Shown here piece after piece: positions 3,127 through 21,875 of a DNA stretch of 32,000 bases. Within the stretch, counting starts at the first letter, position 1; each line of letters opens with the position of its first letter. A model generated the notes under the pieces. That model was not told where the DNA came from. It did not search any database and saw nothing but the letters and a program-made list of their open reading frames with translations. Origin of the DNA: Xenorhabdus bovienii (GTDB lineage: Bacteria; Pseudomonadota; Gammaproteobacteria; Enterobacterales; Enterobacteriaceae). Where the stretch lies: the NCBI RefSeq assembly GCF_024721015.1, contig NZ_JANAIF010000027.1, forward strand, positions 1 through 32,000. Direction: 5' to 3'. Position numbers and translations under genes: made by a program.

Positions 3127-4089
3127 TCATTGTTTTCCCCAAAAATTTTTATCAAATGGGTTGCCAATTATTTCATGCCAATTAATGACCTTTTCTAAAT
3201 CAGGTTTACTTAAATTCAATTTACTATCATAAGCTCTTAATTTTAATAAGTAGTCTTTCATAATTTCAATGCACTTTCTAGCCCAATCACCCTCCCCTGC
3301 GCTCCCCTTTGTTACATGAGGTCTATTCGGCATTCTTGGACGTGCAGGTTTAATTTTATCTATTAACTTTTCTTCAATATAACAAAAAACTATAGATTCT
3401 ACTTTTCGGTTAGACTTAATTTCATTATAAGTTACAGTTATTCCTGTTGCATTATTAATAATAGTTACGGCAGGCTCTATAACTCTTCTTTTAAATTCAC
3501 CGTATTTAGGATATAGCCCCTCCATACCAAGAGACATTTTTACCCACTCCACACCTAATGGATTAGTACAAATTACTCCATTTTCCTTTTTATTTTTATT
3601 TAATAACTTGTATTTCATTAACCAACTATAAATTCTAAAGGCAACCGGAGAATCTAGTTTAACCATTTCTTCTAAATTAATTTGAGTAAACGATTCTTTC
3701 AGTTCATATAAATAATCTCTAACATCTTCTGAAAACTTAACAGTGACATCGCCATAAGCATCTCCAACCCCTTGGTTTATTCTTGTAAACCAATAAATAA
3801 TATCTTTTTCGACTCGTTTTTTTTCTTCATTATATGAAAAAAGAACTACAGGTTTAGATGCTAATGATTCAACAACATTTCTAACTTGCTTATAACCAAT
3901 TTCTTTTAAACCATAAATATCTATATATTCTTTTGCGTAGACGGTATAAAACCCCTCCGGCTGAGGTTTTTTACTATCAATTTTTGTTAAAATCAAATAG
4001 AGCCAACGAATTTCAGGTAAAGTTAAGCTATACGAACCATCAATCAAATCATTTGCTTGTGTAAAAACAATAGAATTTTTATTTTTCAT
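3127..4089 (-). CDS. rep: Rep_3-family plasmid replication initiator (iteron-binding)
   Basis: The N-terminus SIVFTQANDLIDGSYSLTLPEIRWLYLILTKI matches the Rep_3 pattern (N-L-I-x-a-x-Y-x-L-t-l-x-E-x-R). An iteron array lies adjacent. Confidence 0.85.
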   Translation of the reverse strand: MKNKNSIVFTQANDLIDGSYSLTLPEIRWLYLILTKIDSKKPQPEGFYTVYAKEYIDIYGLKEIGYKQVRNVVESLASKPVVLFSYNEEKKRVEKDIIYWFTRINQGVGDAYGDVTVKFSEDVRDYLYELKESFTQINLEEMVKLDSPVAFRIYSWLMKYKLLNKNKKENGVICTNPLGVEWVKMSLGMEGLYPKYGEFKRRVIEPAVTIINNATGITVTYNEIKSNRKVESIVFCYIEEKLIDKIKPARPRMPNRPHVTKGSAGEGDWARKCIEIMKDYLLKLRAYDSKLNLSKPDLEKVINWHEIIGNPFDKNFWGKQ

Positions 4090-4189: not shown

Positions 4190-4338
4190 TTCATTAATGC
4201 CAAAAAGCTCATAAACCAAAGATTAAGATCGAGTTTTTTCAAAAAAAACCAATTAATGACTGATCACATTAATACAAAACAGTTAATAAAAGCATAAATC
4301 ATTGAGTTTATTGCGATTTTCTATTTAGTCTATTTCTA

Positions 4339-4401
4339 TGGATAAATAAAGTCATTCTGTGGATAAATAAAGTTATTCTGTTGATAAATAAAGTTATTCA
4401 C
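4339..4401 (+). repeat. Three tandem 21-bp repeats (T[GT]GATAAATAAAGTYATTC) adjoining the iterons
   Basis: Copies at 4339-4359, 4360-4380 and 4381-4401. They share the GATAAAT core with the iterons. Confidence 0.8.
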
Positions 4402-4560
4402 AGAAAATCTGTACATCTTTATTGATAAATCTGTACATCTACTTTGATAAATCCGTACATCTTTACTGATAAATCTGTACATCTTAAAAATGAGTCATTG
4501 ATAAATCTGTACATCTTTATTGATAAATCTGTACATCTTTATTGATAAATCTGTACATCT
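4401..4560 (+). repeat. oriV iteron array: six direct copies of TGATAAATCTGTACATCT plus one partial copy
   Basis: Copies start at 4423, 4445, 4467, 4499, 4521 and 4543 (22-bp period, one 32-bp gap), with a partial copy at 4401-4418. An A-rich stretch follows at 4561-4700. Confidence 0.9.
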
Positions 4561-4724
4561 ATGAGTTTATAACTTATTGATATACAAAAATTTAAATTTC
4601 ATAAGAAAAGAAAGGAAAAGTAATATGTAGCATAGGAGTAAAGAATAAGAATTTAAAGAAAAAGAAAAAAACAATAATTAATACTTCCCTTTTTAGCTAT
4701 TCAGTGACTCTGCTCCCATTACGA

Positions 4725-8446: not shown

Positions 8447-9274
8447 ATGACCGATAAAAAAGCAACTTCATTAGATCAGCTTTCACGTCTTGATAAAGAA
8501 GCTGTAAGATCAAGAAAAACCTTAATGCTTGATATTAAATTTCTTGAGTTGCCAAAAGAATTGAATATTCGTTATGCGGGTTTAGGTTATGATGAATATT
8601 GGGAACAACCTTATGTAAAAGAATATGTCTCTAAACTGGCAAAAGACTATGCTGATGGAGGGGTTTTCCCGCCTATCGTAGTGAAATTTGACGTTGATAT
8701 CCAAAAAGCCGTTATTATTGATGGTGCTCATCGATACATGGCTATTAAAGAAGCTAACACAGAGTTAGGGGCTGAAATTATTCGCCATGCAGTAACAGAC
8801 TCTAAAGGGGATGAAGCAAAAAACATCTTATTGATGATCAACACAGGTCAGCGTTTAGATGTGAGCGCGGTTGAGATTGCCGAGGGGTTAGCCCGTTTAG
8901 AGGCGTTCGGCTTCACGGTTGAAGAAATTGCGGGAAAAGTGGGTAAAACGGTTCAACATGTTTACTATATGAAAAAAGTAAATAACTTACCCATTGAAAT
9001 CAAAAAACTGATACGCCAGAAAAAACTGACGGTTGCAAAAGCGTTATCCGGCGATAAACCGAAAAAATATACCCCGCCCAAGAAAACGGTTTCTAAAATT
9101 TTAGATATTGTGGCAGAAGCCCATCCAGAAATTAACGGGGAGTTGGTGAATGTGTCAATTCCGCTGGAACTCTACAAACAACTGTTTGATCCAAATATGG
9201 ATATTAATAACGAGAGTCAAGAAGAGGAGAGTCAAGAAGAGGAGAGTCAAGAAGAGGAGAGTCAAGAAGAGTAA
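8447..9274 (+). CDS. ParB/Srx-fold (ParB-like nuclease domain) protein with an acidic (ESQEE)x4 C-terminal tail
   Basis: PPIVVKFDVDIQKAVIIDGAHRYMAIKEA matches the ParB N-domain DGxHR motif. An HTH-like segment FTVEEIAGKVGKTVQHVYYM follows. The upstream CGCCAATAGGCGGGAG resembles the cassette RBS. Confidence 0.7.
   Translation: MTDKKATSLDQLSRLDKEAVRSRKTLMLDIKFLELPKELNIRYAGLGYDEYWEQPYVKEYVSKLAKDYADGGVFPPIVVKFDVDIQKAVIIDGAHRYMAIKEANTELGAEIIRHAVTDSKGDEAKNILLMINTGQRLDVSAVEIAEGLARLEAFGFTVEEIAGKVGKTVQHVYYMKKVNNLPIEIKKLIRQKKLTVAKALSGDKPKKYTPPKKTVSKILDIVAEAHPEINGELVNVSIPLELYKQLFDPNMDINNESQEEESQEEESQEEESQEE
9212..9271 (+). repeat. Perfect 15-bp x4 tandem repeat (GAGAGTCAAGAAGAG) encoding ESQEE x4
   Basis: Read directly from the sequence; it ends at the stop codon. 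Confidence 0.95.
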
Positions 9275-12453: not shown

Positions 12454-13731
12454 CTAATCACTTGATATTAAATCTGCTAAATCATCAAGCGTCAGCCCAA
12501 ATTCATATAGCAATGATATGGCTTTTTCTTGATTTATCTGTTTTAGTCGCTGCCGCTTAAATTCTCTTGCTAGCCTAATTTTATTTATTCTTTTTATTTC
12601 TGATTGATAGTGTTCAAAAATTTTCATTTTTTTCATAAATTGTAGTGGATTACCATTCTGATTAGGAGAATTAGGACAGTACATATCCAATACATTGAGG
12701 CTGGAGCGAAATTCGTTATAATTACAGTGCAAAATATTATCAGAAATATTATGGTAAACTTCTCCAGCAAGAGTGGATTTAAAATCTGGATTGAAGCCGC
12801 CTGTATTCATTTTTAAAACTGCTTCTACACAGAGTTTAATCGGAGTCCATTCAAATTTTTCTCTTAATTTGAATTTATGAGATGATAATTTTCTTAACTT
12901 GGCTTTTTCATAAAATATATTGAGTGCAATGATGTTGTCACCAATCGTAGCATTGATAGATATCACTTCTGGCGGTATGGCTTGATAACTGCTTCTTGAA
13001 CACCCATCGATAATACTAATTTCAGGTAATTCAGGAGAAACCATGAAACGTTTACTATTTATTGTTCGTGCATTGTATGGTGTGAGTTCATAAATTGGTT
13101 TTTCACTCTCTGGTTTGCCTTTTTGCCAGAAATGAGTAATGACATGAGTGTTTTTTCCACATATTGAGCACTCTCCATGAGAACGACTTGATGAATCCAG
13201 CCAATAGTAGTTTGGAATGGAGAAATAAATTGAGGTATCTGCACTATCAGATGTATTGCTTTTTATGGTTTCTCCCAGCGTCTCTTTTTCAATAAAATAT
13301 GTTACGGTGTTGAAATACATACCAGGGCGGAGTCCTGTCCCTCCCGGGCTAACAAATTGAGTTTTAGTATATAGTGCAATTGCGGCACATGGTTCACACA
13401 TTTGTTGACAATTATTCCGTTTGACGAAATGGTCAGTATTTTTTTTAATGGCGCTTTCACTAGGTGAGTCTAGTAACAATAAATCTATATTTTTTAGAGT
13501 CCCTTCTTGTGCTTTTGGATCTTGCACAAACCGTTCTATACCATTTAAGACCGTATAGAATTTATACGGATATTTTTTAACCCCGATCATTAGCAATAAA
13601 AAAGCGTAGTGAAATTCAAATCGGCTGAACGCCAGATGTGAGAGAGGTAAATTCATTGCCTCATCGATTGTGATGCGGGTAAATCCGCCGTTCTGCATTA
13701 CAGGAATCCATTTATCATTCAACAAATCCAT
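12454..13731 (-). CDS. Solitary Cse1/Cas8e-like protein (type I-E Cascade large-subunit homologue), 425 aa
   Basis: By-eye alignment to E. coli CasA: MDLLNDKWIPV vs MNLLIDNWIPV; LAFSRFEFHYAFLLLMIGV vs LSLPRDDMELAALALLVCIGQ; MCEPCAAIALYTKTQFVSPGGTGLRPGMYFNTVTYFI vs LCGGCTAIALFNQANQAPGFGGGFKSGLRGGTPVTTFV; ECSICGKNTHVITHF vs KCSCCGQESNLRYTGF. No other cas gene or array in the window. Confidence 0.75.
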   Translation of the reverse strand: MDLLNDKWIPVMQNGGFTRITIDEAMNLPLSHLAFSRFEFHYAFLLLMIGVKKYPYKFYTVLNGIERFVQDPKAQEGTLKNIDLLLLDSPSESAIKKNTDHFVKRNNCQQMCEPCAAIALYTKTQFVSPGGTGLRPGMYFNTVTYFIEKETLGETIKSNTSDSADTSIYFSIPNYYWLDSSSRSHGECSICGKNTHVITHFWQKGKPESEKPIYELTPYNARTINSKRFMVSPELPEISIIDGCSRSSYQAIPPEVISINATIGDNIIALNIFYEKAKLRKLSSHKFKLREKFEWTPIKLCVEAVLKMNTGGFNPDFKSTLAGEVYHNISDNILHCNYNEFRSSLNVLDMYCPNSPNQNGNPLQFMKKMKIFEHYQSEIKRINKIRLAREFKRQRLKQINQEKAISLLYEFGLTLDDLADLISSD

Positions 13732-14120: not shown

Positions 14121-14170
14121 GAATTAATCTCCATAAAAAAAAGCCCCGCTTATGCAAGGCTTTATGTTAT

Positions 14171-14329
14171 TTAAACCCGATATTTTTCTACGATGGCATT
14201 AGCGCTTTCATCGTCTTCAGCATTGCGATACAGATCTTCGATTATTTCGTCTTCGCGCTCGATATCAATAGCATTAATCCAGCCGCAGTTAGTTAAATAG
14301 GTTTTAGCATCATTGGTTGAATTAAACAT
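14171..14329 (-). CDS. Small acidic protein, 52 aa (13 D/E, 5 K/R)
   Basis: The internal ATG at 14329 has GAGGA 6-7 nt upstream and lies downstream of the predicted promoter. The track start at 14449 lies upstream of that promoter. Confidence 0.55.
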   Translation of the reverse strand: MFNSTNDAKTYLTNCGWINAIDIEREDEIIEDLYRNAEDDESANAIVEKYRV

Positions 14330-14386
14330 ATTTGAATCCTCTAGTGGTTTGTTTATCGGTCGGGTCAATTCCCTTACCGTAACTAC

Positions 14387-14415
14387 AGTATAAAATGACC
14401 TAATTATTAGGTCAA
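14387..14415 (-). promoter_or_regulatory. Near-consensus sigma70 promoter with an embedded palindromic operator
   Basis: On the minus strand: TTGACC (14415-14410), 17 nt, TATACT (14392-14387). The spacer holds GACCTAAT-T-ATTAGGTC (14397-14413), with perfect 8-bp arms. Confidence 0.7.
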
Positions 14416-14564: not shown

Positions 14565-14805
14565 ATGGTTAGGAAATTGAATCTCTGAGGGTTATATTCC
14601 CCGCCCCTTGGGGCGAACTACCCTGTAGTTGACTATTGGTTTTGATACCCCGCTGCTTGCGGCGGGGTTGTTCATTCATTTATTTTAAGCTCTCTATAAG
14701 ATTCTTCTTCTTTTTTTATAAACTCATTTAAAAAACAATAGAAATCATTTGGATTATCCTTGTGTGCTTTATATGAAAAAATAAGAGCGTTTTTTACTCA
14801 AATAA

Positions 14806-17684: not shown

Positions 17685-17736
17685 TTTTTCACCTCTATAA
17701 GAGGATATCACGTTAAAAATAATAGTCAACGTAACA

Positions 17737-17829
17737 ATGCTTTAAATATGCTTTAAATATGCTTTAACTATGCTTTTTTTCATGGTTAATGCTTTGTTTT
17801 TGCATTATATATGCTTTAAAAATGCTTTA
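17737..17829 (+). repeat. Seven ATGCTTT(A/T/G) repeats, mostly phased at 11 or 22 bp (centromere or operator-like)
   Basis: Starts at 17737, 17748, 17759, 17770, 17789, 17811 and 17822. Confidence 0.8.
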
Positions 17830-17869
17830 TTAATAACAACTAAATTCTGACAGTGATAATTACAGGCAC

Positions 17870-17989: not shown

Positions 17990-18346
17990 ATGAAAGAATC
18001 AAAAATAGAAAGAAAAAACATGGTGTCGTTTAGATTAACTGATGAAGAGTACGCACCATTTAAAGAAATCATTGAAAAAATGGATGTCAGCAAGAGTGAG
18101 TTTTTTCGCATGATGGTACTTGGTCAGGTTGAGGCAATTCCAAAGCTTCAAACCCGAAAACCGCCAGAGTATGACCGCATTCTCTTTTTAGTGAATAAAA
18201 CGAGCAACAACGTTAATCAGATTGCCAAACAAATTAACATTGCTTACAAAGAAAACACCGTGACCGAAAAACAGTTAACCGATTGGTATCGCAAATTGAG
18301 TATCATTACTGACAACTTAACGATAGGGATAGAACGTGTTAAGTAG
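17990..18346 (+). CDS. mobC: MobC-family relaxosome accessory protein
   Basis: VSFRLTDEEYAPFKEIIEKMDVSKSEFFRMMVLG...NNVNQIAKQIN matches the MobC family pattern (RHH-like N-terminus plus NxNQiAr). Confidence 0.8.
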   Translation: MKESKIERKNMVSFRLTDEEYAPFKEIIEKMDVSKSEFFRMMVLGQVEAIPKLQTRKPPEYDRILFLVNKTSNNVNQIAKQINIAYKENTVTEKQLTDWYRKLSIITDNLTIGIERVK

Positions 18347-21300
18347 AATTGGCGGTGGTAATAGTGGGATAGTTTATTACCTTGAAACAGGTCAAAAGCA
18401 AGGTCGTGAACTTGGGCGTGATGATTTAGACTATCGTTTATGTTTAGATGGGAACATCGAGCAATTAGATCATGTTATTGAAAGCATTCCAGATAAAGGA
18501 CAAGAACGCTATTTACACATTTCACTTTCTTTTCATGAAAGCCAAGTAAATGAAGAAACACTAAAAGCCGTTTGCGAAGAATACAAAACGCTTTTAATGA
18601 ATGCTTACGATAAAGACGAATATTGTTTTTATGCCGAAGCACACATTCCGAAAGTAAAAAATGTTGTCGATGAAAAAACGGGATTATTAATAGAAAGAAA
18701 GCCCCATATTCATATTGTGATCCCCGAAAAAAATTTATTAACAGGAAAACATTTAAATCCTAGAGGTCGTGGTGAATTCAATATTAAAAGCCTTGATGCC
18801 ATTCAAGAGCATATTAATAGTAAATTCAATTTAGCCAGTCCCAAAGATGGAGTTAGAGTAAGCGATCAGAACCATGCTAATGTATTATCCCGTATGAAAG
18901 GGGATTTGTTTAGTGAAGCTAAATCCGAGCTTAAACAAACGTTAATTTCTGACATTGAAAGTAAAAGCATTAAGACAGAAAAAGATTTTTTGACTCATTT
19001 ATCGCAATATGGGGAGGTGAAAACCTATAATCAAGGTAAATCAAATCAATATTATGGGGTTAAATTACCAGATGAAAGCAAGTTTACTCGATTAAAAATC
19101 CCATTATTTTCAAAACAATTTATTGAAACGCGGACTATTCCTTTAATCAAGCCAACTCCAAAGCAAATTGAAAAAGATTTAAACGAATGGTGCAATAAAA
19201 CCAGTCATGAAATAAAACATATTCATCCCGCAGGGGAAAGGTTGCGTAAAACCTACGCGAAATCAAGCGATCTTCAAAAAGCAGATATGCTTTTAACGTT
19301 AAGGAATCAATACAATGAGCGACACCAAATTGAACGAGAACCCAGAGAAAACCTTCATGGACAATTACAGCCCGGGAGAAATCCGCAGCGAGGTTTTACA
19401 CATCATATCCAAAGAACTCAATCCCGATCCGCGCCGGAGCGATTGTCATCTTTGCAAGAACGCAACATGGTTTACGAGCTACGAGGATTCGGGCAGCGCA
19501 AAACCGGACAATCTAACCCTGTATTGTCACCTAATGAACGTGGTGTTATTAAAAACGAACAAGATAGACAATATCATCGTAGCGGAATGCGACGGACATC
19601 GAATTCAAGAGGACGAGGAAGAATAACAAATCCAATTCAGCAATCATTAATGAAATTGGAAAATAAACCCTCTGAAAATGATTTAACGTTAATGCGAGAA
19701 ATCAGACAAACGATAAATCCTGAACGGTTTTTATCGTATTGCGTCAGTAAATATAATATTGACCCTGCATTGCATAAAGTGACGTTTGCAAAAGATAACA
19801 GCCCTCGATTTTGCGTTAGTAAACTAAATTTAAATGCGAGTGATTTTCTCACAAAACATTTAGGTTTATCGTGGGAAGATGCTAAAATAGACTTATTAAC
19901 GGTTAATGAATCTCAACAAAAAAATGAACCTTTCTTATCGGTTTTATCACGACCTCCATTAAATCGTGAGCAAGCAAAAGAAAGGTCTATTTCACGAGAA
20001 ACCGCGAAAAAAACATTAAACGTTTTTTACCGTGATGAAAAGAAAGCGTTGGAATTTGAATATCGAAAAGAATTGAAATCCATTTTTTCAATAAAAGATG
20101 TTCAAAAAAAAGAAGTTGAACGCGGCTTTTTAATGTTTAATCATTTAAAAGACATTGAAGCTTTAAATAAAATCACGCAGGAAAAACGCAGTGTTGTTAA
20201 TGCGATTCATAATCACTGGAATCCAAGTGATTTAGAACAGAAATTATTACTTGATAAAATGTTAACTGAAAGAGGAAATTACATGACCAATAAAATTATG
20301 AATGCTGATACTGATTTTAGTTTTGAAAAAGCAGTCACTCGCAAAAAACAATTTAATGAATTTGAAGAGCAAGTGAATTCAGGTAAAAAACTTACTGATT
20401 TAGTGGCATATAAAAAAGATAAGGAAGTCCAATATCTTGATCAAAAGACCAAACAAATGGTTTTTAAAGACACAGGTTCACATGTTGAAGCGAAAGGAAC
20501 AATCAGTAAAAATGAAGCCGCAATGATGCTGGAATACGCCAAAAAAAAATATGGCGGTGCATTACGTTTATCAGGCAGTGACGCTTTTAAAGAAACCCTC
20601 GCGCTTGCTGCTGCTGAAAAAGGCATGAATATTATTTTCACACCTGAAAAATATCATGAAATGATGTTAAAAGAGGTTGAACGCCTTAAAGAAATACAAA
20701 AACAGCAAAATACAAGTGATTTTAAAGAGCAAGATTCAAATACCATTAAAGAAAATACTAACATTAAAGTTGATTATCAGGTTAAATCTGAAAAAGAATC
20801 CGTTATTGAAAGTCCGCATGAAATCACAGTTGATAATACCCCTAAAAATACGTTATCTACGTTAGAAATGGAACCTGTTCATATCCCTGAAAGAAAAAAT
20901 AATGACCTTTCAGTTATGGCAAATAATGATGTACGAGCTTACGAGCAGAATAAGATTGCTGCTTATGAAATCATGTTTAAATCTCAACATAGCCCTGAAT
21001 ACGCTCAAGCATTAAAATCAGTGGGTGTTGATAAAGATACAATGCAAAACATTGAATTAATGGGTAGGCCAAGTCAAATCCCTGAGCAAGCGCGATTAGA
21101 CATTGAAAACAAAGTGAAAGCAATGGACTTTAACGTGTCTAAGTCTGATCTCGAAGCAATGGCAGCGCGTGATTTAAAGGCGGTAGAAAATCATAAAGTC
21201 ACTGCTTATGAAGTTATGCTTAAAATTGATTCTAATCCCGAATACGCTCAAGCATTATCGAAAATTGCGCCTAACGACGAGTTTATGAAAACAATTGAAA

Positions 21301-21875
21301 TAATGGCTAAATACTATCCAATGCCAGAGCAAGCAAAAAACAGTATTGAAGCCAAGCTTAAAGAGCAAGGATTTAATATTAATCCGAAACCAGAACAACA
21401 AAAACCAGCTACAGAAACGGCAACCATTGACGGAAAGAAATTCAATAAACTTATTGTTGTTCCAGTACAGAAAAACGATGGATTTGAAAGTAAAACGGAA
21501 TTTAAGGTTGCCTTTAAACAAGATGATAAGATGGTCACTCAATTAAAAGATGTGACTGAAAGTGATTTAAATCGTATGGGAATTGATACTAAAAATCTTG
21601 ATATGCGAAAAATTGAGCCAGTATCGATTAATATCACTAAATTAGCCAATCCACAGGTTGAATCACCGCTTAAACATGCTGAAAAACAACTTAACACGCA
21701 TGTTGACCACATGAAATCAAAAACGTGGTCACGTAGCGAATTTGACGAACTGAAAGAGCAACGTGGTAAACTGGATTCGAATGTTGAAAAGGCTAAATCT
21801 CAACATGCACCAGAACAAGCCCAACAGAACGAACAGAAGAAATCTCAAGAGCAAAATAAAGGGCGTAGTTTATAA
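18336..21875 (+). CDS. MobA/VirD2-family relaxase (1179 aa) with an LPD7-like domain and a duplicated C-terminal segment
   Basis: GIVYYLETG (candidate catalytic Tyr), HISLSFHESQ, and KPHIHIVIP (His cluster). FKDTGSHVEAKG...AKKKYGGALRLSGSDAFKETLALAAAEKG is LPD7-like. Roughly 65-aa repeats AYE(I/V)M(F/L)K...PEYAQAL...PEQA occur at about 20935-21125 and 21190-21385. Confidence 0.85.
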   Translation: MLSRIGGGNSGIVYYLETGQKQGRELGRDDLDYRLCLDGNIEQLDHVIESIPDKGQERYLHISLSFHESQVNEETLKAVCEEYKTLLMNAYDKDEYCFYAEAHIPKVKNVVDEKTGLLIERKPHIHIVIPEKNLLTGKHLNPRGRGEFNIKSLDAIQEHINSKFNLASPKDGVRVSDQNHANVLSRMKGDLFSEAKSELKQTLISDIESKSIKTEKDFLTHLSQYGEVKTYNQGKSNQYYGVKLPDESKFTRLKIPLFSKQFIETRTIPLIKPTPKQIEKDLNEWCNKTSHEIKHIHPAGERLRKTYAKSSDLQKADMLLTLRNQYNERHQIEREPRENLHGQLQPGRNPQRGFTHHIQRTQSRSAPERLSSLQERNMVYELRGFGQRKTGQSNPVLSPNERGVIKNEQDRQYHRSGMRRTSNSRGRGRITNPIQQSLMKLENKPSENDLTLMREIRQTINPERFLSYCVSKYNIDPALHKVTFAKDNSPRFCVSKLNLNASDFLTKHLGLSWEDAKIDLLTVNESQQKNEPFLSVLSRPPLNREQAKERSISRETAKKTLNVFYRDEKKALEFEYRKELKSIFSIKDVQKKEVERGFLMFNHLKDIEALNKITQEKRSVVNAIHNHWNPSDLEQKLLLDKMLTERGNYMTNKIMNADTDFSFEKAVTRKKQFNEFEEQVNSGKKLTDLVAYKKDKEVQYLDQKTKQMVFKDTGSHVEAKGTISKNEAAMMLEYAKKKYGGALRLSGSDAFKETLALAAAEKGMNIIFTPEKYHEMMLKEVERLKEIQKQQNTSDFKEQDSNTIKENTNIKVDYQVKSEKESVIESPHEITVDNTPKNTLSTLEMEPVHIPERKNNDLSVMANNDVRAYEQNKIAAYEIMFKSQHSPEYAQALKSVGVDKDTMQNIELMGRPSQIPEQARLDIENKVKAMDFNVSKSDLEAMAARDLKAVENHKVTAYEVMLKIDSNPEYAQALSKIAPNDEFMKTIEIMAKYYPMPEQAKNSIEAKLKEQGFNINPKPEQQKPATETATIDGKKFNKLIVVPVQKNDGFESKTEFKVAFKQDDKMVTQLKDVTESDLNRMGIDTKNLDMRKIEPVSINITKLANPQVESPLKHAEKQLNTHVDHMKSKTWSRSEFDELKEQRGKLDSNVEKAKSQHAPEQAQQNEQKKSQEQNKGRSL
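19315..19626 (+). CDS. Overlapping alternative-frame ORF inside the relaxase gene (103 aa); possible mobB-like nested gene
   Basis: AAGGA lies 9 nt before the ATG. The segment is locally GC-rich. The relaxase frame is R/Q/G-rich low complexity here, while this frame looks like balanced, globular sequence. Confidence 0.35.
   Translation: MSDTKLNENPEKTFMDNYSPGEIRSEVLHIISKELNPDPRRSDCHLCKNATWFTSYEDSGSAKPDNLTLYCHLMNVVLLKTNKIDNIIVAECDGHRIQEDEEE

Follow-up and report, generated by a model that had tools for sequence, protein, structure and literature searches.

The 32-kb stretch of Xenorhabdus bovienii DNA analyzed here (from here on, the window; it makes up 32 kb of a 51.7-kb source contig, of which about 19.7 kb lies outside) is of plasmid origin and encodes a compact paralog of Cas8e/Cse1, the large subunit of the type I-E CRISPR effector complex Cascade. 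We refer to this protein as mini-Cas8e. It represents a rare, conserved family of compact Cas8e paralogs that has apparently not been described before and that occurs on plasmids and prophages together with a regulatory cassette. With roughly even confidence, we propose that mini-Cas8e may act as a dominant-negative large subunit, that is, as an anti-CRISPR (Acr) protein, and that it is carried as an autoregulated accessory cassette.

Homology and predicted fold of mini-Cas8e

The initial annotation of the window had matched the intact open reading frame (ORF) of mini-Cas8e to the type I-E large subunit based on five landmarks and had estimated that the protein is about 75 amino acids (aa) shorter than Escherichia coli CasA. 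Profile, hhalign and Foldseek evidence agree on this match, and the measured difference is 77 aa (425 aa versus 502 aa). Comparisons with hidden Markov models (HMMs), which the initial annotation had suggested, gave a divided answer. The Pfam family CRISPR_Cse1 (PF09481) matched the ORF with 43.8 bits (E value, 2.6e-11), i.e., above the gathering cutoff of 24.7, in a direct match that covers aa 68-202 only, and four Cas8e models in PADLOC also matched (best E value, 4e-15), while PADLOC returned no match other than Cas8e. The NCBIfam equivalog cutoffs, which stand for the same function as CasA, were missed (31.5 versus 70.05 bits for TIGR02547 and 13.9 versus 576 for NF007247). A single-sequence search of the PDB with mini-Cas8e returned nothing, and CasA was reached by profiles only: when a profile of 19 family members was aligned with a profile of 38 canonical Cas8e proteins using hhalign, residues 1-290 of mini-Cas8e aligned with residues 1-365 of E. 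coli CasA with a probability of 99.95% and an E value of 7.8e-38.

The suggested structural comparison pointed in the same direction. Using AlphaFold with a 98-sequence alignment, we obtained a confident model of mini-Cas8e with a predicted local distance difference test (pLDDT) score of 92.1 and a predicted template modeling (pTM) score of 0.87; this input alignment is dominated by canonical Cas8e, and the modeled C-terminal domain is to be read cautiously (a 6-sequence alignment gave a pLDDT of 47 and an unusable model). In a Foldseek search of the PDB, each of the best 17 matches was to a Cas8e/Cse1 chain, namely from E. coli, T. thermophilus, T. fusca or the I-E HNH variant, with E values down to 1.8e-15 and TM scores of 0.59-0.65, and the next match had an E value of 0.3. 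These profile comparisons and this model support that mini-Cas8e is a true Cas8e/Cse1 homolog with a predicted two-domain Cas8e fold.

In the profile-profile alignment, each of the five landmarks was real and fell in the expected column of E. coli CasA, and the L1 helix, the zinc cysteines, the glycine loop and the wedge hairpin align with the E. coli protein column for column. The N-terminal motif MDLLNDKWIPV of mini-Cas8e lies opposite MNLLIDNWIPV, C112-x2-C115-AAIAL...GGTGLRPG opposite C140-x2-C143-TAIAL...GFGGGFKSG, C188-x2-C191-G opposite C250-x2-C253-G, and IIALNIFYEKAKL opposite IMGGYRNNQASIL, which is located within the 343-366 beta-hairpin of E. coli CasA. The glycine loop spans aa 130-137 and the wedge beta-hairpin aa 264-289, and the zinc cysteines (C112, C115, C188 and C191) are invariant across the 19-member family alignment. 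The L1 helix of mini-Cas8e has the sequence NTDHFVKR (aa 98-105) and that of the X. bovienii chromosomal Cas8e the sequence NTDHFIKR; the L1 motif is among the most conserved positions that the family has in common with canonical Cas8e. In E. coli Cse1, L1 is a short helix that passes through the Cas5e pore, with F129, V130 and N131 on the 5' handle of the CRISPR RNA (crRNA), and the beta-hairpin sits between the two DNA strands (PMC4787809).

The segments in which mini-Cas8e departs from canonical Cas8e are three insertions and the C-terminal domain. Mini-Cas8e is without the insertions, which correspond roughly to E. coli residues 59-91 and 190-225 and to a shorter one further on. As a lead only, we note that a similar shortening, around E. 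coli residues 190-232, is seen in Cas8e of the Cas3-independent I-E HNH variant. In the AlphaFold model, the C-terminal domain comprises predicted helices at aa 296-310, 320-336, 340-350 and 362-397; an extra acidic tail (aa 398-425) is present only in the window and X. yunnanensis (locus L001) copies. The canonical four-helix bundle lies outside the hhalign alignment with this domain, and an hhalign comparison of the C-terminus only had a probability of 6%, so that homology of this domain is not supported at the sequence level. The canonical C-terminal invariants E420 and F423 (near-invariants, W450 and F462) fall where the profiles do not align. Judged by profile alignment and model, the C-terminal domain is unrecognizable by sequence, and a small helical domain is still predicted.

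Distribution, selection and cassette organization of the family

An exhaustive HMM search of 1.84 billion representative proteins identified 17 proteins of 351-441 aa at E values of <1e-30, all with an end-to-end match in a single stretch. These proteins are set apart by a clear score gap from hundreds of canonical Cas8e proteins of 500-560 aa, which score ~100 bits in three stretches. The family amounts to about 20 divergent clusters with intact ORFs of this consistent length. In a neighbor-joining tree, which is rough because distances are saturated, 21 short proteins split with 89% bootstrap support from all canonical Cas8e, including the X. bovienii chromosomal protein. Mini-Cas8e and this chromosomal Cas8e are only ~26% identical over residues 1-152, and the family does not nest with the host Cas8e. 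Because of this split and this low identity, the sequences place the mini-Cas8e family as an old paralogous lineage and not as a recent capture. A literature search for a solitary Cas8e-like family found no description, and no family member was found in PLSDB plasmids, GenBank phages, PHROGs or BFVD viral structures.

The family is under purifying selection. In a comparison with the 85%-identical X. yunnanensis copy, the ratio of nonsynonymous to synonymous substitution rates (dN/dS) was 0.25 overall, 0.27 for the N-terminal domain and 0.22 for the C-terminal domain, and for other family pairs it was 0.14-0.36. One copy, in Xenorhabdus sp. IM139775 (L008, 732-1930), has a frameshift near codon 150 with the rest intact in another frame and with the partner gene described below intact; this copy is a recent pseudogene, or the assembly is in error at this position.

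All family contexts that could be read are mobile elements. Assemblies with a family member include GCA_028598805.1, GCA_029104695.1, GCA_029104545.1, GCA_032518125.1 and that of Enterobacteriaceae bacterium B14. For the window, the plasmid origin asserted in the initial annotation was borne out by a Rep3 initiator gene with iterons and by genes for a PemK toxin, an ArdC-N/DUF3560 protein, a ParB-like protein, NikA and a relaxase. Three related loci (L001 to L003) lie on Xenorhabdus contigs with plasmid markers (relaxase, Rep3, ParAB and PemIK), and a fourth (L091) lies on a plasmid-like contig with H-NS/Hha/SNF2. An 80.9-kb scaffold of Enterobacteriaceae bacterium B14 (L007/L086) is phage-plasmid-like, encodes ParA, PAPS-reductase-like and ParB-like proteins, and is listed as viral in IMG/VR. 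The remaining two contexts are lambdoid prophages of Enterobacteriaceae hosts; in one (L090), the cassette is located between Q and the lysis genes, and in the other, a P22-like prophage (L092), it is located in the nin region. In both, the cassette has a promoter of its own and is oriented opposite to the phage genes on either side. The family is therefore not specific to plasmids.

In agreement with the initial annotation, mini-Cas8e is solitary in the window. A Pfam scan of 35 window ORFs detected no cas family besides mini-Cas8e, Tandem Repeats Finder (TRF) and a direct-repeat scan of the 32 kb detected no repeat-spacer array, and an Rfam scan and an I-E repeat pattern search of the window for a crRNA source gave no match. 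Likewise, no cas genes were found within 10 kb of eight related loci with long flanks. NCBI names the exact protein, on the 51.7-kb X. bovienii contig, "type I-E CRISPR-associated protein Cse1/CasA"; the "Cse1/CasA" annotation is misleading in that it could be taken as evidence of CRISPR-Cas on these elements.

Mini-Cas8e is the last gene of a cassette that consists, in this order, of a promoter with a palindromic operator, a leader hairpin, a variable first gene, a gene for an XRE-type helix-turn-helix (HTH) protein and the mini-Cas8e gene (Table 1). Seven other loci (L001, L005, L007, L008, L090, L091 and L092) likewise have the HTH partner gene immediately before the mini-Cas8e gene, and the two genes overlap by 4 nt or are separated by up to about 14 nt. 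In the window, 2 nt separate the TAA stop codon of the partner gene from the mini-Cas8e ATG, and the 3' end of the partner gene contains an AGGAG. Based on this spacing and the AGGAG, translational coupling to the HTH gene, which the initial annotation had stated outright, is plausible. The HTH assignment is based on HTH_3/HTH_26 matches in family members and on a match to PDB 3op9 (E value, 0.005), and PHROGs 12690 and 3626 are common to three members of the partner family. The idea that the partner is a Cas11 or Cas5 mimic was dropped, as hhalign against each X. bovienii Cas protein found no similarity. In two X. bovienii loci, L002 (9439-10000) and L003 (7560-7757), the partner gene is deleted and only its last 30-110 nt remain; in L003, the remnant is joined to the promoter and leader just upstream of the mini-Cas8e gene, an arrangement that suggests derepressed mini-Cas8e expression. 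Because these two loci have lost the partner and mini-Cas8e is still under purifying selection, the HTH protein looks like a regulator rather than an obligate cofactor.

The -35 box of the cassette promoter in the window is overlapped by a perfect 19-bp palindrome (TGACCTAATAATTAGGTCA), which is a candidate operator of the HTH partner. Palindromes with a CCTA-N5-TAGG core are present upstream of the cassette in five other loci (L001, L090, L091, L092 and L093), and the 193 kb of loci contain no further copy of this motif. The distance from the end of the palindrome to the first ATG is about 60-69 nt in the window, L001, L090 and L092. The leader hairpin, which is located downstream of the promoter and ahead of the first gene, is present in the window, L001, L005, L090, L091 and L092/L093, and L003 has a remnant of it. 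This leader is kept at the nucleotide level, though the cassette proteins are only 27-40% identical. Across six sequences, 89.6% of the cells were paired, compared with 8-52% in slid controls, and two pairs had compensatory changes; the hairpin is within the minimum-free-energy fold with a z score of only -1.0, and no Rfam family matches it. The six sequences are thus suggestive of a leader hairpin conserved as RNA structure, which may be where control at the RNA level takes place.

The first gene of the cassette is a 52-aa ORF in the window and in L001, and unrelated genes of 127-155 aa take its place in other cassettes. The 52-aa ORF has no Pfam or PHROG assignment, and its size and charge are typical of small anti-defense proteins. 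A conserved promoter, operator and leader combined with a variable first gene may serve to anchor a search for further anti-defense genes.

Mini-Cas8e as a candidate anti-CRISPR protein

The host species of mini-Cas8e has a type I-E system. On an X. bovienii chromosome (GCA_000736655.1; L094, 5263-12640), we identified the gene order cas3-cas8e-cse2-cas7-cas5-cas6e. No cas1 or cas2 follows cas6e in this locus. The chromosomal Cas8e is without the first C-x2-C pair, and the plasmid paralog keeps that pair. Canonical Cas8e is also present in other Xenorhabdus and Photorhabdus species, and subtype I-E is present in all analyzed X. griffiniae/TH1 strains, where the protospacers lie in genes of conjugation and of prophages (PMC11566119).

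The initial annotation had hypothesized a dominant-negative or decoy large subunit. We find the dominant-negative reading to be the most economical one because mini-Cas8e is a true Cas8e paralog, is solitary, and retains L1, and because its host species has type I-E; the concept itself has already been published for type I-B. The retained N-terminal motif, L1, zinc site, glycine loop and wedge hairpin would be the parts that dock on Cascade or face DNA proximal to the protospacer-adjacent motif (PAM). Because these docking and PAM-facing parts are retained, mini-Cas8e could take the Cas8e position on the host Cas5e-Cas7-Cas11-crRNA body; in the 32 kb of the window, the element has no genes for such a body. 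Because the C-terminal domain is reduced or replaced and the three surface insertions are gone, the hybrid complex would be predicted to fail in R-loop locking and/or Cas3 licensing, and the plasmid or prophage would thereby escape type I-E interference. The XRE-type HTH protein encoded upstream is probably a repressor that acts on the cassette promoter via the palindrome over the -35 box, like anti-CRISPR-associated (Aca) proteins. We thus infer three steps, namely that mini-Cas8e docks to the host Cascade, that interference is inhibited and that the partner acts as a repressor.

Several observations weigh against this reading. Nearly all DNA- and PAM-facing elements as well as the two-domain layout are kept, and mini-Cas8e could accordingly be a working large subunit. 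At 425 aa, it is large for an Acr, and no known acr gene was recognized beside it. The HTH gene is located upstream, whereas it is located downstream in most acr-aca operons. Type I-E is established for X. bovienii as a species, not for the carrier strains themselves, and with an N-terminal identity of only ~26% to the host Cas8e, mini-Cas8e would not necessarily be compatible with the host Cas5e. One family copy (L008) is frameshifted. Finally, the cassette is on the minus strand and the ArdC-N/DUF3560 gene, the ParB-like gene and their neighbors are on the plus strand, while leading-region anti-defense genes are reported to share one strand (PMC11541004). Our confidence in the dominant-negative reading is about even because the evidence is from sequence and predicted structure and because the protein looks structurally complete.

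The strand also bears on when the gene would be expressed. The initial annotation had placed it among leading-region genes; its distance of 4-5.5 kb from the nikA-proximal candidate origin of transfer (oriT), the position of which we infer together with the direction of transfer, agrees with this placement, while its orientation opposite to the ArdC-N/DUF3560 and ParB-like genes does not. Early expression from incoming single-stranded DNA is unlikely. Because of the orientation opposite to the leading-region-type genes and because of the prophage contexts, the data point to expression from the established element via its own regulated promoter.

Acr proteins derived from Cas proteins are already known in type I-B, and the mini-Cas8e family would extend this concept. 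AcrIB3, a Cas5 homolog, and AcrIB4, a homolog of the Cas8b C-terminus, assemble into a defective type I-B Cascade, and the same study cataloged 358 orphan viral cas genes with eight cas8e matches in its Table S3 (Katz et al., bioRxiv 10.1101/2023.06.24.545427); the one IMG/VR contig of the mini-Cas8e family (UViG_2619619259) is absent from that table. Like AcrIB3 and AcrIB4, mini-Cas8e is a homolog of a Cascade subunit, forms its own clade and is carried on mobile elements outside CRISPR-Cas loci; their hosts carry the cognate subtype, and X. bovienii, the host species of mini-Cas8e, encodes type I-E. The systems differ in subtype and in host, with type I-B in Listeria on the one hand and type I-E, Enterobacterales plasmids and lambdoid prophages on the other. 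They also differ in what was copied, as AcrIB4 corresponds to the last 90 residues and AcrIB3 to a Cas5 copy, whereas mini-Cas8e, an Acr candidate based on sequence and predicted fold, is a near-full-length large subunit. The conserved XRE partner, operator and leader belong to the mini-Cas8e cassette.

AcrIF3 is a small protein that mimics only the helical bundle of Cas8f, has no detectable sequence homology to Cas8f, and blocks Cas2-3 recruitment (summarized in bioRxiv 10.1101/2023.06.24.545427). Interference through resemblance to the large subunit would be common to both proteins; for mini-Cas8e, however, homology is detectable, and mainly in the N-terminal domain. In acr-aca operons, an HTH Aca repressor binds inverted repeats of the acr promoter. 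With these operons, the mini-Cas8e cassette shares a co-transcribed XRE-type HTH gene, a perfect palindrome that overlaps the -35 box and a variable front gene, but its HTH gene precedes the candidate Acr, its HTH protein has an extra conserved C-terminal domain, and a conserved leader hairpin is present in addition. With canonical Cas8e (PDB 4QYZ, 4U7U, 5H9F, 4AN8 and 6C66), mini-Cas8e shares the N-terminal sequence and fold, the two-domain layout and the key elements, whereas it is 60-150 aa shorter and differs in the insertions and the C-terminal domain as described above. Canonical Cas8e is encoded in a cas3-cas8e-cas11-cas7-cas5-cas6 operon with an array, and mini-Cas8e in loci that, where examined, are without those neighbors.

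Among the alternatives, an exaptation of the Cas8e fold that is independent of Cascade is unlikely but survives best. Here, the fold and the XRE partner would serve as a DNA-binding, regulatory or exclusion module, for instance as a "moron" that protects the host or controls competitors. Such a role would fit the prophage cassettes, which with their own promoter on the strand opposite the lytic genes resemble many morons and defense genes expressed in lysogens, as well as the strongly conserved non-HTH C-terminal domain of the partner and the only distant relationship of the family to any host Cas8e. It is harder to reconcile with the conservation of L1: this motif contacts Cas5e and crRNA in E. 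coli, and its retention is hard to explain without Cascade. Moreover, the conserved part of the cassette contains no enzymatic or membrane effector domain, mini-Cas8e has no PADLOC match besides Cas8e, and the partner is dispensable in two strains.

We consider it rather improbable that mini-Cas8e is a functional large subunit with which the element co-opts the host Cascade and reprograms it for its own use. The reprogrammed complex might be a Cas3-independent RNA-guided DNA binder resembling CRISPR interference (CRISPRi) or might follow altered PAM or self/non-self rules, and it would use host crRNAs for regulation of the element itself or for competition with other elements, with the XRE partner and the conserved leader hairpin timing expression. 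Every DNA- and PAM-facing element of Cas8e is kept under purifying selection, the fold is complete and confidently predicted, and the Cas8e of the Cas3-independent I-E HNH variant is shortened in one of the regions absent here, which again is a lead only. Against this stand the searches of the 32-kb window for an array, an I-E repeat and Rfam CRISPR families, all of which found no crRNA source on the element. The cassette also contains nothing effector-like, and we identified no benefit of co-option beyond plain inhibition.

Very little probability falls to the possibility that a free Cas8e look-alike soaks up the Cas8e-binding Acrs of competitors and in this way preserves the type I-E immunity of the host. 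In its favor, mini-Cas8e keeps the surfaces for PAM recognition, expression from resident elements is probable, and one published I-E Acr reportedly targets sites of PAM recognition (PMC8887544); yet this idea is purely speculative, we found no precedent for it, it leaves the retained L1 helix that plugs into Cas5e unexplained, and for a mobilizable plasmid an anti-CRISPR would be a more direct benefit. Least probable of all is a currently functionless leftover from the decay of a type I-E system on a plasmid, to which the shortness relative to canonical Cas8e, the frameshift in L008 and the deleted partner in L002 and L003 might point but which we rejected because of purifying selection (dN/dS of 0.14-0.36, in both domains) and conserved cassette architecture, with the cassette and its promoter kept across proteins only 27-40% identical, intact ORFs of consistent length in about 20 divergent clusters, and no other cas remnants nearby in the loci examined.

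If the dominant-negative reading is true, mini-Cas8e would be the first case of a near-full-length type I-E large subunit turned into an anti-CRISPR, and subunit replacement would extend from type I-B in Listeria to the best-studied CRISPR system, on Enterobacterales plasmids and in lambdoid phages. The retained and deleted segments would then also dissect Cas8e by separating Cascade docking from R-loop locking and Cas3 licensing.

Features of the plasmid window

The coordinates of the cassette and its parts are listed in Table 1 together with those of the Rep3 gene.

TABLE 1 Positions in the window of mini-Cas8e, its cassette and the replication initiator gene
Feature	Position	Strand	Remarks
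Compact Cas8e/Cse1 paralog (mini-Cas8e)	12454..13731	minus	Intact ORF, ATG start, 425 aa
N-terminal globular domain, aa 1-290	12862..13731	minus	Homologous to E. coli CasA 1-365 (hhalign)
C-terminal helical domain, aa 291-425 and stop codon	12454..12861	minus	Secondary structure from AlphaFold
XRE/Cro-type HTH partner gene, 128 aa	13734..14120	minus	N-terminal HTH and conserved ~60-aa C-terminal domain
Terminator-like hairpin with T-run, possible attenuator	14140..14163	minus	Between the 52-aa ORF and the HTH gene; consensus scan
First cassette gene, strongly acidic 52-aa ORF	14171..14329	minus	With ribosome-binding site; 85% identity to L001
5'-leader hairpin, CGGUAAGGG-AAUUGA-CCCGACCG	14357..14379	minus	Between promoter and first gene
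Sigma-70-like promoter, TTGACC-17-TATACT	14387..14415	minus	-35 box overlapped by palindrome
Perfect 19-bp palindrome	14396-14414		Candidate operator of HTH partner
Rep3 initiator gene	3127-4089		Adjoins iterons

Beside the Rep3 gene, two sets of 21- to 22-bp iterons (3 and about 7 copies) are located at 4334-4582 and are likely the replication origin. The ParB-like gene (8447-9274) contains at its 3' end, at 9212-9271, a perfect tandem repeat of four 15-bp units (GAGAGTCAAGAAGAG), and the protein has a tail of a repeated acidic pentapeptide. Between an operon for ParA-like proteins and nikA, an 11-bp unit (ATGCTTTAAAT and variants) is repeated about eight times at 17725-17842 and forms a candidate centromere or oriT-associated repeat. 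The relaxase gene (18336-21875) encodes a protein of 1179 aa with a weak MobA/VirD2-type nuclease domain and an LPD7 (large polyvalent protein) domain. At the left edge of the window, a relatively GC-rich stretch at 43-174 contains a 66-bp tandem duplication with 85% identity, which is probably part of a gene that continues beyond the window.

The window also encodes a Gp49/HigB-type toxin with an HTH antitoxin as well as ParA-like ATPases. Between the cassette and the HigB-like/HTH pair, we observed an intergenic element of about 100 bp (14573-14677) with GC-rich hairpins, e.g., at 14647-14668. This element is 97-99% identical to sites on the Xenorhabdus plasmids NZ_CP147735.1 and NZ_FO818638.1, with which the rest of the region is not shared, and it may be a small mobile or repetitive extragenic palindromic (REP)-like element or a shared terminator.

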